A stretch of DNA of 64,000 bases. Origin: an uncultured Actinomycetes bacterium. GTDB taxonomy: Bacteria; Actinomycetota; Thermoleophilia; RBG-16-64-13. Made by a program: the position numbers and the translations under genes. The notes under the pieces were generated by a model. The model saw only the letters and a program-made list of their open reading frames with translations. It was not told where the DNA came from and did not search any database. Below are positions 53,980 to 63,703 of the stretch, in pieces; the stretch's first letter is position 1; each line of letters starts with the position of its first letter. The stretch spans positions 1,280,001-1,344,000 of the forward strand of contig CAWJDT010000001.1 of NCBI GenBank assembly GCA_963841735.1, given 5' to 3'.

Positions 53980-54500
53980 CTAGCGGGTCTTCAGATACTC
54001 GACAACAGCGTCGCTCTGGGCCCGAGTCAGTTGCCAGCGGGGCATCAACACCTCCAGAGTTCCTCCCTCGGGGTCTACGCCTTGAGTCACTGCAAAGAAG
54101 AAGCTGTCCGGGTCAAAGGCCTTCTCAGCCGGATCGGCGGGGGCGCAGTCAGCGCGCTCCAGCGGATATCGGGTACCTCCACCTGTCCCCTCATCATCTG
54201 GATGGTCTGGCCGCGGGCATCAGAGCCATGGCAGTTCGCACAGGCCGTCGCCGACCTCATCATCCCCGTGACCCCCGACCGAGTGATCAGGCGCCCATTG
54301 TCGTCCGAACCCGTTTGGAATATCTGCTCGCCCAGACCGACGCCTGGGGCCGGACTGGTGGATACAGACGACTCGCTCGGGTGCAACGGAGCACCAGCGG
54401 GGATCGACAGGGCGAGCAGAGCGACGGCGGTCACTATGCCCACCAGCAACAGGAGCAACCCCGTCTTCGCCTGGGTGCTCCACCCACCGGTTCGGCTCAT
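53980..54500 (-). CDS. Membrane-anchored monoheme cytochrome c, frameshifted near 54140
   Basis: CANCH; after removing one base the frame continues AVTQGVDPEG...LMPRWQL...VEYLKTR*. Confidence 0.8.
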
Positions 54501-54781
54501 TGCCCGGACTCCCGGCTGCCAAGAAGGTCCTGCCTGCGTTGCAGGAACTCTTCTCGTTGGATCTCTCCGCGGGCGTAGCGTTGCTCAAGCACCTGCAGAG
54601 CACTTGAGCTGCCAAGACCGGTCGGCTGCCCTTGAGAGGAGCCCTCTTGAACATGGCTGTGAGTGGTCAGGCCTCTCACCAGAAGGACGACCCCGACTAC
54701 TATCAAGGCCAGGACCGCCAGCATGATTATCATCATCAACGCTCCGCCTGCATCGCCCCAACCGTCTCCCCAACCCCACAT
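54497..54781 (-). CDS. SHOCT-domain membrane protein
   Basis: MWGWG, one TM, ALQVLEQRYARGEIQREEF. Confidence 0.88.
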   Translation of the reverse strand: MWGWGDGWGDAGGALMMIIMLAVLALIVVGVVLLVRGLTTHSHVQEGSSQGQPTGLGSSSALQVLEQRYARGEIQREEFLQRRQDLLGSRESGQ

Positions 54782-54909
54782 GATGGCATTCTCCTTTGGC
54801 TTGATGTCTTGCACTCAGCCGAGTCTTTGAGCTCGATGATGTCTATGTTCCCGATTTGGCTCGGGTGGAATCCCGGCGCACGGGCAGGGTAGCCATTCGG
54901 GCGGAGTAG

Positions 54910-55794
54910 CTACTGGGTATCTGTGGACGCCAGACCGGCGTCGTCACACGCGTCGCAGCTTCAGCCGCCCGACACTGCTTCGACGAGTGTGGCGGCCTCA
55001 AAACAGCTGGTGCTCCCGACGTTCTGCGTACCCGCCGGTTCTGCCTCAGGTTCAGGTTGCTCCCGCGCCGGCTGATGGTGCGGATGGTAGTCGCAGGCGG
55101 GCCCGCGGCAGCCGTGGGGGTGGCGATCGACGTCACGGCAGACAATGGCGTCGGACTCGGAGGGGTCGATGCCGAGCTTCTCCTTCAGAAAGACCTCTGT
55201 CTCGGCGAGGCAACTGCGGACAAAAGCCTTGCAGCAGCCGGGCTCGGCTTCCTCGGCTGTCGCGGCGGCAAGTCTGCTGACCAGCTGCATGCTGGCCCGC
55301 GTCTCCGCGCCCTTGCCGCATTGACCGCCCACCAACACGCTGTAGCAGGCGCCCAAGGCGGGAACCACGCCGCAGACCCCGCTCAATCCGCAGTACGCGC
55401 TTATGGCCTGGCATTCCGTGCGTTGCAGGACTTCAGCCACGTGCCGGTCGGTCACCCCCAGGTGGCCCCTGTTCTTGAGGGAGGTCATCAGGGCGCCCGC
55501 GGCGATCAGAGCGTGCTCGCAGCCGAGCATGGGAAGCTGCGGAAGCGACATTAGGCGCTCGGCCAGGTCGCCGGCTGATACTTCTTGGGAGGAGGAGAGC
55601 AGCTGCGGTAGCAGCTTTCGCATGCCGGCTCCGTGGCACGCTTCACACAGATAGTGGCCCTGGGCGCAATGCACGTGCCCGACCTCCGATCGGCCGCACA
55701 GCGAACAGGTGAACGGCGCGGCCTCTTCGAGGTAGGTGAGTACCTCACCGCAAAGGCCGCATTGCTCAGTATGTTGCTGATGGTTCTCGCTGAT
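54910..55794 (-). CDS. DUF5714-like Cys-rich protein; probable ATC start and candidate selenocysteine at TGA 54961-54963
   Basis: CGLCG...CSLCG...CAQGHYLCEACH, CGLSGVCG, PGCCK; TGA followed by SCDAC and a SECIS-like hairpin; ends at 54961 if TGA is a stop. Confidence 0.75.
54922..54948 (-). promoter_or_regulatory. Candidate bacterial SECIS element
   Basis: UGUG-AC-GACGCC-[GGUCU]-GGCGUC-CACA; loop begins 24 nt after the UGA. Confidence 0.65.
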
Positions 55795-55813
55795 GGTTGC
55801 ACACTCCCTCGGA

Positions 55814-56281
55814 CTACTTCTGCAGAAGCTCGTAGCCGGCCTCTTGCCAGGCGACGAAGCCCCCGTCTAAGTTGTAGAGGTTCGTGTATCCCGCTCGAAC
55901 CCACTCTTCTATCGAGATGCGGCTCATGCGGTCGCTGCGGCAGTAGACGACGATCTTGGCGTTCTTGTCGGCTGGGAGTTGGTCCAGCTGCTGAGCGGCT
56001 TGGTCGTAGGGAAGAAAGAGGTCGGTTTGCTCGATCTCGCCTTCGTAGGGCGTGTGGGTGTTGATGAAGAGGAAGTCCTTGTTCTTGAGCATGGCGGCGA
56101 GCTCGGCGGGGGTGATGTCGACGTAGGTCCCCGCTCCGTCGCTGGTGGTGACCACTGTACCCACCTTCTCGGGGCCGGCAGTGTCGACCGGAGGGACGGT
56201 CGCGCCGCCGCAGGCCGAGAGAGACGCCAGCGTGAGCGTCGTGGCTATGGCCACCCAGGGGATAAGCCGAGTGTTGCGGAT
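55814..56281 (-). CDS. Rhodanese-domain lipoprotein
   Basis: Lipobox LSAC; IVVYCRSDRMS; YNLDGGFVAW; probable ATC start. Confidence 0.88.
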   Translation of the reverse strand: MRNTRLIPWVAIATTLTLASLSACGGATVPPVDTAGPEKVGTVVTTSDGAGTYVDITPAELAAMLKNKDFLFINTHTPYEGEIEQTDLFLPYDQAAQQLDQLPADKNAKIVVYCRSDRMSRISIEEWVRAGYTNLYNLDGGFVAWQEAGYELLQK

Positions 56282-56412
56282 TCTCCCTCTCCTCTTTGTG
56301 TGATCGCTAGATGGCAAGGTTCGCCCTCCCTCCAACGACAGATACCCGCTCGCGGCCGGGGAGTAAACGGGTCTTCAGATTGCGGTCGAGCAGGTATGAG
56401 CTAGGGGACAAG

Positions 56413-56448
56413 CGGGGCGCAGACCCCTCAAGAGAGGTCTGCGCCCCG
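56413..56448. terminator. Strong hairpin between the secreted-protein and rhodanese genes
   Basis: CGGGGCGCAGACC...GGTCTGCGCCCCG. Confidence 0.55.
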
Positions 56449-56503
56449 AGTCGTCGTTTCGCTGCCTTTGGCGGCATTCGCTTCGGGCTAGCTCACCGAA
56501 GAG

Positions 56504-56983
56504 CTACCTCTGCGGGCCGGCACCGTCACAGGTACCATTGCCGACGCTGGCACCATTGCCGAAGGGGCCGGCGCCGATGCTCGTGGCGTCCTGCAGGCGC
56601 TGCTGGGCCTGAGTCTGGGGCTGAGTCTGCGCCTGGTCGCACGTGCCATCACACTCGGTGCTGCGATCGCGCGTCTGAGCCGTGGTGCCGTTCATCGCAC
56701 CGTTCGCTCCTGCGGTCTGACCGGCTCCAGCACCCCGCACGGCGCCGTTCTGAGAGGCCGTCCCTAGGGGCCCCGTGCTATCGCAAGTGCCGTCGCAGTT
56801 CGTTCCGGATGCATCCCGGGCTTGGTCCTGGGCCTGAGTCGCTGTGCTCACGGCTGCTCTTCCACCGCGATACCCATCCCCGTCACCGCTTCCGCTGGTG
56901 GCTGCGAACGCCACCCCGGCAACGGCCAATGACAGAGCTGCAGCTACGGCCACGCCGATGAGGATCTTTCTCTTTCTCTGCAT
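56504..56983 (-). CDS. Secreted low-complexity Gly/Gln/Thr protein with CDGTC repeats
   Basis: AGGAGG RBS; signal peptide ending AFA; CDGTCD twice and GTCDG. Confidence 0.75.
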   Translation of the reverse strand: MQRKRKILIGVAVAAALSLAVAGVAFAATSGSGDGDGYRGGRAAVSTATQAQDQARDASGTNCDGTCDSTGPLGTASQNGAVRGAGAGQTAGANGAMNGTTAQTRDRSTECDGTCDQAQTQPQTQAQQRLQDATSIGAGPFGNGASVGNGTCDGAGPQR

Positions 56984-57063
56984 TTTCAACCTCCTAGTCT
57001 TTGTTGGTCAGTGGACGGCTGAAAACCGTCCGCCGCTTCAACGGGTTCTAACCCGTCTTCGTG

Positions 57064-60319: not shown

Positions 60320-60409
60320 CAGAACGGCACAAAGGTGAGAACCGCACAATAGTGGGTATGCTTCTATTGTTCGGCAGCAACCAAGGCTTCAGAACGGAAG
60401 GGAACCGAG

Positions 60410-61580
60410 ATGAAACGTGCGGTCGTTCTGGGTGGAGGGATCGGCGGTGTCGAGGCCGCCATTGAGCTGAAGAAGAGGGGCTTGGAGGTCGAGCTGGTCT
60501 CCGACAGGGATTACCTCTTCGTCTATCCCCTCGCCATCTGGATCCCAACAGGGGAGCGGTCTGTCGATCGGGTGAGTATCGGACTCACCGATATCGCCAG
60601 GGCGCATGGGTTCAGCGTGACCATCGATGAGGTCGTCGGGGTGAGTGCCCGCGGACGTAGTTTCACCCTCAAGACCCGCGGCGAGCGCCAAGACTTCGAC
60701 TACCTGGTGCTGGCTCTCGGCGGAGCCAAGATGCCCCACAAGGGCAAGGAGCACACGCTCTCGATTTGCGGTGCGCCTGAGGAGAGCGTCCGGCTGCTCG
60801 AGCGACTCGACGCACTCATCGCTGTGGGCGGCGGCACGATCGCGGTCGGCTTCGGGGGCAATCCGAAGGACAGCAGCGCAGTGCGGGGCGGCCCGGGGTT
60901 CGAGTTTCTGTTCAACGTGCACCATCGGCTCGAAGAAGCTGGGAGTTCGCAGAGGCTTCGACCTCGTGTTCTTTGCGCCCATGCCTCAGCCCGGCATCCG
61001 CATGGGGGAGAAAGCGGTGCGCGCAATGGACCGCATGCTCGCATCCCTTGGCATCCGTTCCTATACAGGCAAGAAGATCAGTGAGTTCGTCGAAGGCGCA
61101 GTCATTCTCGAGGACGGGACCAGGCTCGACGCGGATCTCATCATGTTCATCCCCGCGGGAGATGGCCACGGTGTTATGAAGTCTTCAGACCTGCCGCTGA
61201 GCGACGCCGGTTTTGTCTTGATAGACCGGGCCTGCGAGGTGAAGGGGTATCCGTGGCTCTACGCCATCGGCGATATGGCCGCCTTGGAGGGGCCGGAGTG
61301 GAAGGCCAAGCAGGGCCATGTGGCCGAAGTGATGGCTCGGACTGCCGCGCGGGATATCGCCCAGAAGGAGGCCGGCCGCGAGCGGAGCGGGAGCTACGTC
61401 GATGAACTCTGCATCATCTGCGTTATGGACATGGGCAACGGCGCCGGATTCGTCTATCGGAACGAGAAGCGGGCGCTGTTTGTGCCGCTGCCCATCGTGG
61501 GGCATTGGCTGAAGAAGAGTTGGGGCACGTATTACCGGCTGCGCAAGCTAGGGAAAATGCCTCGTATCCCCGGCATGTGA
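60410..61580 (+). CDS. sqr: Sulfide:quinone oxidoreductase, type VI/SqrF-like, frameshifted near 60932
   Basis: GGGIGG, SICG, GGNPKDSSAVRGGPGFEFLF, YAIGD, KQGHVAE, CVMDMG. Confidence 0.82.
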
Positions 61581-61585
61581 AGTCG

Positions 61586-61971
61586 CTAGCAGCAGGCCCC
61601 GGCCTGACTGTCTGCGCCTTCGGTGGTGCTCTTGTTGTCCTTGAGCGCGCAGCCAATCGTCGCAGTCGCCGCCGCAGATCACTCTTCTCTTCGGCCGTCA
61701 CCGCCCGGGATAGCGCATCGACGATGGCCGCCTGCGCCCCAGACAAGCGGGATGAGACGCGGTAGTACATCCATAGCCCCTCTCGGCGGTCTTCCACCAG
61801 CCCAGCATGGTAGAGATAGCGCAAATGGCGAGAGGCTTTCGATTGGGTCAATCCCAGAGCCCCGACAAAATCGCAGACACAGAGCTCCTCTCGTTCGAGG
61901 AGTAGCGTCATTATCTGCAACCTTGTTTCGTCGGAGAGCGCTTTGAAGGTGTCGGCCAAGTGGTTCATCAT
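61586..61971 (-). CDS. arsR: ArsR/SmtB regulator with CVC and reconstructed C-terminal CC (two apparent indels near 61650)
   Basis: FKALSDETRL, ELCVCD, QSKASRHL, REGLWMYY; alternative frame ends QAGACC*. Confidence 0.85.
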
Positions 61972-62396
61972 GACACGCCTTCCGCGGGACTGGGCGTCTC
62001 GAGGATCTCGTCGACTGTCGACGCTATCGCGTCGGCTACCAGGCGCACAGCCTCGTCGTCCGCCGGACCGCGTGACCGCGACGACCGTTGACAGCCGGCA
62101 GCGCTCGTCCCAAGGATATCCCGCACGACCAGAGCGCGCGCCACCGGTCCGCCGTGCTTCTCGGTGCCCCATCTCGCGCATTGCTTGTCGCATCCGTCGA
62201 TGGTGATGGTGGGATGAGTGCGGGCGAAGTTACGTTCGCCCTCATTGCCCGCCAGGAACAGGGGTAGGCAGAGAGTGACTGTCTCGTGAGGTCTTAGGGA
62301 TTCCAGCACCCGGCGGACGGCATTGCGGGAAATGGTGCCCTCGGCTATTTCCTCACCGCTGCAGGAGATGATGCCCACCTTGGTGGTCTTGTTCAT
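61968..62396 (-). CDS. DGC-domain putative zinc-binding protein
   Basis: ISCSG, LCLP, TIDGCDKQCA. Confidence 0.85.
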   Translation of the reverse strand: MNKTTKVGIISCSGEEIAEGTISRNAVRRVLESLRPHETVTLCLPLFLAGNEGERNFARTHPTITIDGCDKQCARWGTEKHGGPVARALVVRDILGTSAAGCQRSSRSRGPADDEAVRLVADAIASTVDEILETPSPAEGVS

Positions 62397-62408
62397 TTCG
62401 TGCGGTCA

Positions 62409-62835
62409 TCACGCCACCTCTTCGCCGGCGCGGAGTCGAGCGGCCTCGTCGGCCACCGCTTCGGCGATCTCTCGACTGATAGTCCAGCCTTCCTCGGTGA
62501 GTTCTGTCCCGCTACCTGGCTGGACGCCCCGGCGAGCTGCTTAGGAATCGAGCGACCTGAAAGGCTTTTGCCACCTGGCCGCCCGCGATCTCGACGTTCT
62601 TCTGCGCGCAGGCCTTGCCACAACCGTCGATGGTTACGCAGGGGTGCGTCCGCACCTTGGCCAAAGTCTCTCCATCTTCTCTCACCAGCAGTGCCAAGCA
62701 GACCACGTCGGTTTCGGCCGGCGCAAGCTCGTCGGTGGCCAGATAGGCGGATTCCCGGCTGAGAAGCCCGTGGACTTTGCCGATGCCGCTGCACGGGATC
62801 ACCAGCACCTTGTCCGAGACTTCATTCATGTCCAT
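62409..62835 (-). CDS. DGC-domain protein, frameshifted near 62535
   Basis: IPCSGIG, VCLA, TIDGCGKACA; continues PGSGTELTEEGW...EEVA* in another frame. Confidence 0.82.
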
Positions 62836-62841
62836 GTGTCC

Positions 62842-63703
62842 TTAGTATTCGGCGGCTTTGTGCTCGACGTCGGCAGCGTATGCCGGACCGTCGACCAGTA
62901 GTTCGCGGTCCTCTTCCCAGGCGGTAAGCTGCAATTCGACGATCCAACTGCCATACGGGTCCTCATTGATCCATTCCGGGGCGTCGTCTACTGCCTGGTT
63001 GATGCGCACCACCGTACCGCTCACGGGCGACACCAGCTCGAAGGCGGCCTTGGCCGACTCGATGGTGCCCACCTCGCCGAACTGCTCGATGCTCGCGCCG
63101 ATCTCGGGCGGGTCCACGTAGGTGATATCAGTGAGCCGTTGCTGCAGGTAGTCGGAGATGCCTACCCGGGCCCTGGCTGCCGGCCACCCGCACCCAGACG
63201 TCGTTCGCGTTGAAGAAGTATCCGGTCAAGGGGATGCGGAACTCGTACTTGTCGTGGACCACCACCGCAAAATCCGAGGGCGTTTCGAACTCTGCCTCCG
63301 GCGGTGCTTCCCTCGCGTTCTCCGTGGTCGCGGGCACGCCGGTCTCGGACGCTTTGATGCCGTCGACTATGGTCCGGGCAAGCTCGAGAGCGTCAGTACC
63401 AAGGCGGAGCCCAGGTTCCAGCGCGCGGCCGGACTTCTTGACGGCGTCGGTCACCAGCACCTTTTGCGCCGGTTTGGCCTGGGCGGCCACGGCCAGCCTG
63501 GTGGCGCACTGGGTTGCGCATCCATCGACCACGATAAGCCGTTTCTCGGTGAGCGCCTTCTTGTAGCGCGCGGGAGTGCGGTTGAGCACCACCGGGCAGA
63601 TGATCTGCGCCCCCGTTTCTTCTGCCAGTATGATGGCCACTTCGCGGGCCACCGAACCCTCGGGCTTGTCGAGACCCGTGCAGGAGAGGACTGCGTAGCT
63701 CAT
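62842..63703 (-). CDS. DGC domain fused to a glycine-cleavage-H-like lipoyl domain, frameshifted near 63170
   Basis: SCTG, ICP, VDGCATQCA; then YFFNANDVWVRV / ARVGISDY, IESAKAA, SPVSG, INEDPYGSW. Confidence 0.82.

Follow-up and report, generated by a model that had tools for sequence, protein, structure and literature searches.

In bacteria, selenocysteine (Sec; U in motifs) insertion sequence (SECIS) elements of the Escherichia coli fdhF type are short stem-loops that lie right after the UGA and carry a GGUC-type apical loop. Among the proteins with a DUF5714 core, RefSeq names one from Desulfosporosinus "metal-binding double selenoprotein MbdU" (in a cluster-member listing), and the NCBIfam model for MbdU (NF045648; 468 positions; cut-off, 600 bits) describes a fusion of DUF5714 and DUF2284. 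A 2026 review (PMC13188914), citing Haft and Tolstoy (2025, mSystems), lists MbdU in its Table 1 with the motif CU and two Sec residues; among the 119 families of this table, MbdU is the sole entry that could be tied to DUF5714 (via NF045648), and no entry exceeds three Sec residues. The names "DUF5714" and "PF18978" occur in no full text of the literature searched. Here, we analyze a DUF5714 gene on the minus strand (approximately positions 55794 to 54910) of a 64,000-nucleotide (nt) stretch of DNA, hereafter the window, from an uncultured Actinomycetes bacterium (Thermoleophilia, RBG-16-64-13; assembly GCA_963841735.1, contig CAWJDT010000001.1, positions 1,280,001 to 1,344,000). On the basis of comparisons with its relatives, this is very probably a genuine bacterial selenoprotein gene, with Sec inserted at its in-frame UGA. 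An earlier note on this DNA had proposed a DUF5714-like selenoprotein with a Sec-containing tail and had doubted that the family was known as one. The core and the tail are borne out, and the placement of the gene is corrected to the minus strand; the doubt was misplaced, since MbdU is already a DUF5714 selenoprotein according to NF045648 and the review. The window protein is thus a subfamily on a known selenium-linked core and not a categorically new system, and its architecture and Sec position are uncatalogued as far as these sources extend.

Under translation table 11, the open reading frame (ORF) runs from 55674 to 54961 and ends with ...EAVSGG-TGA, a complete DUF5714 domain preceding the TGA. 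The surrounding stop-to-stop frame (54910 to 55866) is open and holds this single TGA. When the TGA is read as U, 16 codons (S-C-D-A-C-D-D-A-G-L-A-S-T-D-T-Q) are added before a TAG, which places Sec 17 residues from the C-terminal end. The U-x-C-x-x-C tail described in the earlier note (i.e., the TGA, SCDACDDAGLASTDTQ, and the TAG) is present in full in the sequence. The locus therefore has the layout of a selenoprotein gene, i.e., an in-frame UGA and a reading frame that continues to a later stop.

The TGA is kept in the relatives. A search over 5.8 billion proteins returned 294 matches, and among the 120 best ones listed, coverage of the read-through query never exceeds 94%. All 25 database proteins that were fetched end one residue before a TGA, 19 at the tail Sec (...VEAAGGG, ...AGCT, ...AAGT, and similar ends) and 6 at the Sec of an AhpD domain (G-C-x-P); in the DNA of the relatives (genome and metagenome contigs), every such protein end is an in-frame TGA. 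The first stop is a TGA at one of two conserved sites in 29 of the 30 distinct actinobacterial loci, the exception being the truncated locus L092, which breaks off earlier. All 29 relatives with a readable end carry TGA, never TAA or TAG. In a survey of 126 distinct DUF5714 loci, TGA was the first stop after the core in 102. Another 21 loci, mostly from Bacillota, have a TAA or TAG 13 to 47 residues past the H-P-H-G-C motif (in 20 of them the end comes within 21 residues and a tail is absent, and the remaining one is L092), and 3 are distant paralogues.

The codons around the TGA are also patterned. The tail-only ends read GG-U-S-C-D-A-C (window), GCT-U-S-S-Q-E-C, GA-U-S-C-S, GGG-U-S-T-U, and others, and the closest DNA relative (L085) ends with GG-U-S-C-T-T-C. 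In 13 of 23 distinct tails, a second TGA lies exactly three codons past the first (TGA-NNN-NNN-TGA; i.e., U-x-x-U); a Cys codon occurs among the 5 codons after Sec in 9 tails, that of L079 (U-S-C-D-U) included, and 3 tails have a Cys two residues ahead of Sec. Every tail therefore has a second chalcogen no more than 5 residues from Sec. The earlier note had suggested looking for homologues with either TGA or Cys at this site: UGA occupies the aligned position in all 23 tails, no homologue with Cys there was found, and the partner position alternates between Sec and Cys.

Downstream of the TGA lies the hairpin that the earlier note had described, and its sequence, its UGUG/CACA extension, and the position of its loop 24 nt after the UGA were all confirmed. 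The 5' arm GACGCC (54942 to 54937) begins 18 nt past the TGA and is followed by the loop GGUCU (54936 to 54932) and the 3' arm GGCGUC (54931 to 54926), while UGUG (54948 to 54945) pairs with CACA (54925 to 54922) across an AC bulge. For the 81-nt region, the folding energy is -39.5 kcal/mol, compared with -28.4 +/- 3.5 kcal/mol for shuffled sequences (z = -3.2; 1 of 200 shuffles as good). We applied a strict hairpin test (stem of at least 6 bp, GGU at the loop, start 6 to 26 nt after the TGA), which was passed by 65 of the 102 first in-frame TGAs of DUF5714 genes; the background was 1.1% both for the TGA triplets of 300 kb of this genome (87 of 8,095) and for those of the related loci (180 of 15,783). 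The hairpin at the TGAs of the family thus exceeds chance. Among the 12 tail-first actinobacterial loci, 6 pass, and the others have a wobble pair, a mismatch, or a variant loop.

When the 23 tails were aligned from the TGA onward, a 7-bp helix was paired in 93.8% of 161 cells, and four of the seven pairs showed changes on both sides (i.e., compensatory changes). The observed covariation score was reached by none of 500 shuffles, and shifting the partner columns lowered the pairing to 29 to 53%. The loop is GGUNN in all aligned tails. The stem-loop (GAC GCC GGN NNG GCG UCN) codes for D-A-G-x-A-S. Since three loci alter this peptide and keep the pairs (L021, D-V-G-L-T-S; L088, G-A-G-R-V-P; L085, G-V-G-P-T-S), the conservation of D-A-G-x-A-S is best read as the footprint of an RNA element, and the comparison indicates that the hairpin is selected as RNA. 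A covariance model built from the tails hit this site alone in a whole-genome scan (next best score, 19.8 bits), a result that carries no information on other selenoprotein genes in the genome. The element thus has the attributes of a SECIS (a stem-loop just downstream of the UGA, a loop that contains G, and conservation in orthologues). Like the fdhF type, it and its counterparts have a GC-rich stem in the coding region, 12 to 18 nt past the UGA, and keep GGU in a 5-nt loop; unlike that type, the window hairpin matches no Rfam SECIS model, and in the U-x-x-U relatives a single hairpin would need to serve two UGAs 9 nt apart.

An ordinary stop at this TGA would mean that the protein ends with ...VSGG and that the hairpin acts in 3'-end stability or attenuation or is a repeat element. 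Such an arrangement would suit the complete DUF5714 domain ahead of the TGA, the Bacillota homologues that end soon past the core with TAA or TAG and no tail (17 of the 21 rows of their clade), and the absence of both a Cys homologue of the tail and an Rfam SECIS match, but we regard it as very improbable, because TGA would be needed in 29 of 29 actinobacterial loci and in a Nitrospirota clade, though TAG or TAA ends 7 of 14 genes in the window. It would also leave the second TGA (13 of 23 tails), the conserved Ser codon, and the nearby Cys codons unexplained in untranslated RNA, and the hairpin keeps a fixed distance to the TGA and a GGU loop without a T tail (no T-run terminator was called at the site). 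The earlier note had held that homologues ending here with TAA or TAG and lacking the hairpin would speak against Sec; the relatives show TGA in 29 of 29 cases and a hairpin with compensatory changes.

In the favoured interpretation, the UGA is decoded as Sec. SelB with Sec-tRNA(Sec) would bind the mRNA hairpin at 54948 to 54922 and decode the UGA at 54963 to 54961, which would yield a 294-amino-acid protein ending with ...VEAVSGG-U-S-C-D-A-C-DDAGLASTDTQ; without Sec insertion, a 277-amino-acid protein would be released. Most of the sequence past the Sec motif (D-A-G-L-A-S) would be present because it encodes the hairpin. The process would be standard SelB/SECIS recoding, supported here by comparative sequence evidence.

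The genome contains the genes that such decoding requires. A gene for selA (C1:516809-517942; 441 bits; open frame, 589 amino acids), one for selB (near C1:514459; 66 bits on the wing-3 domain; open frame, 772 amino acids), and a tRNA-Sec (selC) with the anticodon UCA (C1:514269-514365) form one cluster. A Sec-type selD (208.6 bits; L006:1501-2429, i.e., G000:C1:1701642-1702570) has its own in-frame TGA, in S-G-U-A-C-K, followed by a GCCCCAA-GGAC-UUGGGGC hairpin. This gene content indicates that the organism is able to make selenoproteins, and the objection raised in the earlier note, a lack of Sec machinery, falls away. Moreover, selA was detected in eight of nine genomes with a close orthologue (the ninth genome is 76% complete) and in 41 of 61 across all relatives searched. 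We also considered a genome-wide reassignment of TGA as a sense codon; since TGA works as an ordinary stop, at the expected place, in 7 of the 14 Pfam-supported ORFs of the window (TAG or TAA ends the other 7), this was rejected. The Sec insertion that the earlier note proposed is thus supported by the machinery, the conservation of the TGA, and the covariation of the hairpin.

Several observations weigh against this interpretation. The selD gene is split over three reading frames in the assembly (two +1 shifts), either by assembly indels or because the gene is decaying; if the split were real and not an assembly indel, the supply of selenophosphate would be broken. The one public sequencing contig that matches the region (one DNA run, 14% of words) spans 55730 to 55900 and not the TGA, and no RNA run was listed for it. 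No in-frame ATG, GTG, or TTG precedes the first zinc-ribbon CxxC of the window gene. A Cys/Sec pair at an aligned position is a customary, though not a strictly defining, criterion for selenoproteins, and a search with the tail region over the 5.8 billion proteins returned, from three candidates, only the truncated ORF of the window and no homologue with Cys in place of Sec. Rfam, searched at E values up to 10 over 54000 to 56500, returned no SECIS family and just two chance matches. As regards function, the gene neighbourhood around 14 relatives examined showed no conserved partner and no conserved metal gene. A wide VIA-align structure search placed CyuA (an Fe-S cysteine desulfidase; Z = 6.8; 139 residues; root mean square deviation, 4.5) first, level with a designed cage; since the noise stated for helical models includes a Z of 6.8, no fold assignment was drawn from this search.

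Another gene of the window with a broken frame lies at 60400 to 61580 (plus strand) and encodes a pyridine nucleotide-disulfide oxidoreductase (SQR-like) whose frame changes midway; it has weak NCBIfam matches to Nterm_to_SelD and SQR_III_seleno. With this second frameshifted gene (approximately 60.4 to 61.6 kb) besides selD, the assembly looks indel-prone. That the TGA or its frame is itself an assembly artefact, or that the gene is decaying, would accord with these two apparent frameshifts and with the missing canonical start codon. Yet the same TGA, frame, and hairpin recur in independent assemblies from many samples, and L085 has both the Ile at the start position and U-S-C-x-x-C; this explanation is extremely unlikely.

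The Ile concerns the start of the gene. Homologues begin with M/V-S-x-x-Q-x-x-H-T-E-Q-C-G, and the aligned codon of the window gene is ATC (Ile; 55794 to 55792). Ile also occupies this position in the two closest protein homologues (P0002 and P0003) and in L085, and Met or Val occupies it in the other members. Given that the homologue starts align there and that a Shine-Dalgarno-like motif precedes the codon by 9 nt, we infer a start at ATC and a 294-amino-acid product. The features of the gene are listed in Table 1.

Table 1. Coordinates of the DUF5714 gene, its parts, and the adjoining gene in the window
Feature	Position	Strand	Description or basis
Rhodanese-domain gene	55814..56335	-	PF00581, 44.1 bits; context gene
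Shine-Dalgarno-like GAGGGAG	55804..55810	-	9 nt ahead of ATC; read from the sequence, putative role
Whole gene	54910..55794	-	Predicted 294-amino-acid DUF5714 selenoprotein; inferred ATC start, Sec UGA, TAG end
N-terminal Cys/His zinc-ribbon-like region (CxxC...CxxC...C..H..CxxCH)	55633..55761	-	Invariant residues; beta strands in the model
DUF5714 core (Pfam PF18978), helical, with invariant Cys/His	55084..55602	-	Residues 67 to 239
Low-complexity Pro/Glu/Ala-rich linker	55006..55083	-	Predicted local distance difference test (pLDDT) score falling from 85 to 61; no predicted secondary structure
Conserved pre-Sec motif C-F-E-A-A-T-L-V-E-A-V-S-G-G	54964..55005	-	Alignment A1
UGA read as Sec (predicted)	54961..54963	-	In-frame TGA, kept in relatives
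U-S-C-D-A-C motif (UxCxxC)	54946..54963	-	Read from the sequence
SECIS-like hairpin UGUG-AC-GACGCC-GGUCU-GGCGUC-CACA	54922..54948	-	Fold, covariation, covariance model (R1; 52.6 bits)
True stop TAG	54910..54912	-	Read from the sequence

The protein clearly belongs to DUF5714 (PF18978; 123.8 to 124.9 bits compared with a gathering threshold of 26.2). Among 45 aligned homologues, C32, C35, C45, H49, C52, C55, and H56 of the N-terminal region are invariant, as are C94, C137, C143, C161, C189, C190, C221, H227, H229, C231, and C236 of the core. The linker differs between relatives in length and sequence, and in the motif ahead of the TGA, F267, A269, and E274 show conservation of 90% or more; a corresponding F.AA.VVE..GG motif precedes the TGA in AhpD-bearing relatives. 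In the AlphaFold model (mean pLDDT, 84.7), the zinc ribbon and the helical core are confident, with beta strands at residues 20 to 45; the pLDDT is 85 to 98 in the core and at most 77, falling to 48, in the tail and linker. A Foldseek comparison of this model with the PDB gave nothing at E values of 0.001 or below, and the database homologue taken to the ESM Atlas gave no usable match.

The window protein and MbdU share the N-terminal zinc ribbon and the DUF5714 core, and both are Sec-containing, as predicted here for the former. Compared with NF045648, the window protein scores 289.3 bits, below the MbdU cut-off, and it aligns to positions 31 to 274 only, the DUF2284 half (model positions approximately 275 to 468) being missing. 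Its frame has one TGA, in G-G-U-S-C, and no C-U dipeptide, and thus lacks the C-U motif and the two Sec residues of MbdU. The DUF5714-DUF2284 fusion of Tissierella (L034) scores 626.9 bits over positions 35 to 468. This MbdU-type gene (L034:2387-3832, plus strand) has in-frame TGAs ahead of the zinc ribbon, in an N-terminal S-G-C-U-E-P, and within DUF2284, in E-E-G-K-T-U-P-G. The candidate Sec residues of L034 thus lie at the N-terminal C-U and in DUF2284, whereas that of the window protein lies in a short tail past the linker. Two other NCBIfam selenoprotein families, ArsM/AhpD (NF041537) and ArsM/DUF2284 (NF041536), resemble the DUF5714 proteins in having a core followed by a Sec-bearing C-terminal module, but the core there is a methyltransferase. 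Unlike the UXX-star families (NF041114 and NF041211), in which Sec lies within approximately 3 residues of the C terminus, the window protein has Sec 17 residues from its end, and NCBIfam gave no match to either family at E values up to 1.

The relatives add further architectures. In a tree of the core, Actinomycetota form one clade (30 rows; support, 99) that contains 12 tail-only loci, 17 AhpD-bearing loci, and the truncated one; the window gene falls in a tail-only subclade (8 rows; support, 96) adjoining AhpD-bearing forms. This placement of the two forms indicates that the AhpD module was gained or lost several times with the Sec tail retained, and the window copy lost, or never had, the AhpD module. 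The long forms insert an AhpD-like domain with G-C-A-P-U-T-x-Y-C, which matches NF041537 locally (approximately 100 bits) and also TIGR04169, and 14 of the 17 distinct AhpD loci continue to an F-x-A-A-E-V-V-E-x-x-G-G-U-x-x-U-G-x-D-D-A-G-x-A-S tail (in the other 3, the frame is lost or the contig end is reached). The window protein, four long forms, and one Nitrospirota form all score below the cut-off of every NCBIfam model.

Some of the long forms in Actinomycetota have four in-frame TGAs (L013:925-2301, minus strand; L093:1501-2781, plus strand; L090:1480-2784, plus strand; L094; L015; and L029). The first TGA is in the AhpD motif G-C-x-P-U and has a UGCCUCUC-GGUC-GGGAGGCA hairpin 8 nt later, the second and third form the U-x-x-U tail, and the fourth is in a terminal UGA-AAG-stop with a constant AAG and a variable stop (TAG, TAA, or TGA), after which comes a GC-rich hairpin. 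A total of four Sec residues, if true, would exceed the maximum of three in the review table (PMC13188914). A further 67 distinct DUF5714 loci (L036 to L164), mostly from Nitrospirota, end with C-x-(S/T)-U-(K/R/T)-P or G-x-C-U-(R/K), with the candidate Sec 1 to 4 residues from the stop. Their hairpin, CCGUCC-GGUC-GGACGG, is conserved 9 to 16 nt past the UGA, and 49 of the 67 loci pass the strict test. These ends have the appearance of an uncatalogued tail of the UXX-star type on DUF5714; the U-K-P-stop ends belong to these Nitrospirota relatives and not to the window gene.

The rhodanese gene lies directly upstream of the DUF5714 gene on the same strand, its stop 19 nt ahead of the ATC, and none of the 14 relatives examined shares this adjacency. 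The same-strand run also encodes a two-component system, a SHOCT membrane protein, a CxxCH protein, and a hypothetical secreted protein. The gene for the last of these (56504 to 56989, minus strand) is flanked by the histidine kinase and rhodanese genes, and its product has a signal-peptide-like N terminus, no Pfam or NCBIfam match, and three C-D-G-T-C-D motifs, which resemble the C-D-A-C-D of the Sec tail. At 61423 to 63703 (minus strand), an ArsR/SmtB-type metalloregulator gene (94 bits) is followed by two genes for DGC-domain proteins; these, 6 to 9 kb from the selenoprotein gene, possibly form a metal(loid) cluster. Elsewhere, two minus-strand arsenite methyltransferase genes (NF008823; cut-off, 263 bits), one at L024:4111-4959 (291 bits) and one at L025:4114-5100 (288 bits), are convergent with the AhpD-bearing DUF5714 genes of these loci.

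With respect to function, mammalian thioredoxin reductase has a Gly-Cys-Sec-Gly tail, and MerA has a C-terminal Cys pair. The window protein would be analogous to these enzymes in having a flexible C-terminal extension that carries a chalcogen pair beside a Cys-rich active centre; it differs in having no sequence or fold relation to them and in its motif (U-x-C-x-x-C, or U-x-x-U in relatives), which is followed by 10 to 30 residues that encode the SECIS. By this analogy, the U/C cluster at the end of the approximately 26-residue disordered linker may be a mobile selenol/thiol arm that forms a selenenylsulfide, or chelates a soft metal(loid) or chalcogen species, and transfers electrons or cargo to the DUF5714 core, which is rich in invariant Cys and His. 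We put forward this handing over of electrons or of soft metal(loid)/chalcogen cargo tentatively, as a reading somewhat short of probable. It is supported by the low pLDDT of the tail and linker and by the modules that occupy the C-terminal position in relatives, i.e., AhpD (CxxU), DUF2284 (Sec), or TusA. All three are chalcogen/redox modules, and NCBIfam finds them fused to arsenite methyltransferases too, as in the ArsM proteins with AhpD and DUF2284 Sec modules.

Alternatively, Sec may be real and the tail mainly a high-affinity ligand for a soft metal(loid) (As, Hg, Cu, or Zn), the protein being a chaperone or sensor and not a redox relay. NCBI calls the fused relative "metal-binding," the AhpD and DUF2284 Sec modules also occur on arsenite methyltransferases, and genes for such enzymes (288 and 291 bits) adjoin the AhpD-bearing L025 and L024; the ArsR-type regulator and the two DGC-domain genes of the window would fit as well, and the review states that Sec may serve as a metal ligand in several such families (PMC13188914). 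The absence of a metal gene conserved beside the 14 relatives and the redox/sulfur chemistry indicated by the AhpD-type CxxU and TusA partners count against a pure ligand, which we consider possible, though improbable. For the mobile arm as for the ligand, the tail would link an uncharacterised Cys-rich DUF5714 core to Se-dependent redox or metal(loid) chemistry, beside the ArsM, AhpD, and DUF2284 fusions. The redox or metal-binding role that the earlier note proposed for the tail is likewise hypothetical.

Gene callers and NCBI models truncate these proteins at the TGA; for example, a 273-amino-acid "DUF5714 domain-containing protein" in GenBank (P0022) ends one residue before Sec. The likely active residue is therefore absent from every database copy. 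With the tail recognised, Thermoleophilia-type Actinomycetota gain a selenoprotein subfamily, and Nitrospirota gain a sister subfamily. We are inclined to view DUF5714 as a large, mostly unannotated selenoprotein assemblage that spans at least two phyla, with three architectures absent from the 119-family catalogue and, in the two architectures of Actinomycetota, with D-A-G-x-A-S as a SECIS footprint and one hairpin serving two UGAs. The three architectures are the tail-only G-x-x-U-x-C or U-x-x-U forms of Actinomycetota (the window gene among them), the forms of the same phylum with an AhpD CxxU, a U-x-x-U tail, and a terminal U-K-stop (i.e., four Sec codons), and the Nitrospirota forms ending with C-x-S-U-K-P. 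The tail offers a clean case in which an RNA element, and not the peptide, dictates conservation at the codon level, and the relatives with four candidate Sec residues would be a useful test bed for bacterial decoding of multiple UGAs. The family thus offers a larger picture than this one gene, with three uncatalogued architectures in two phyla, as many as four TGA codons, and a peptide motif that appears to be dictated by its SECIS.

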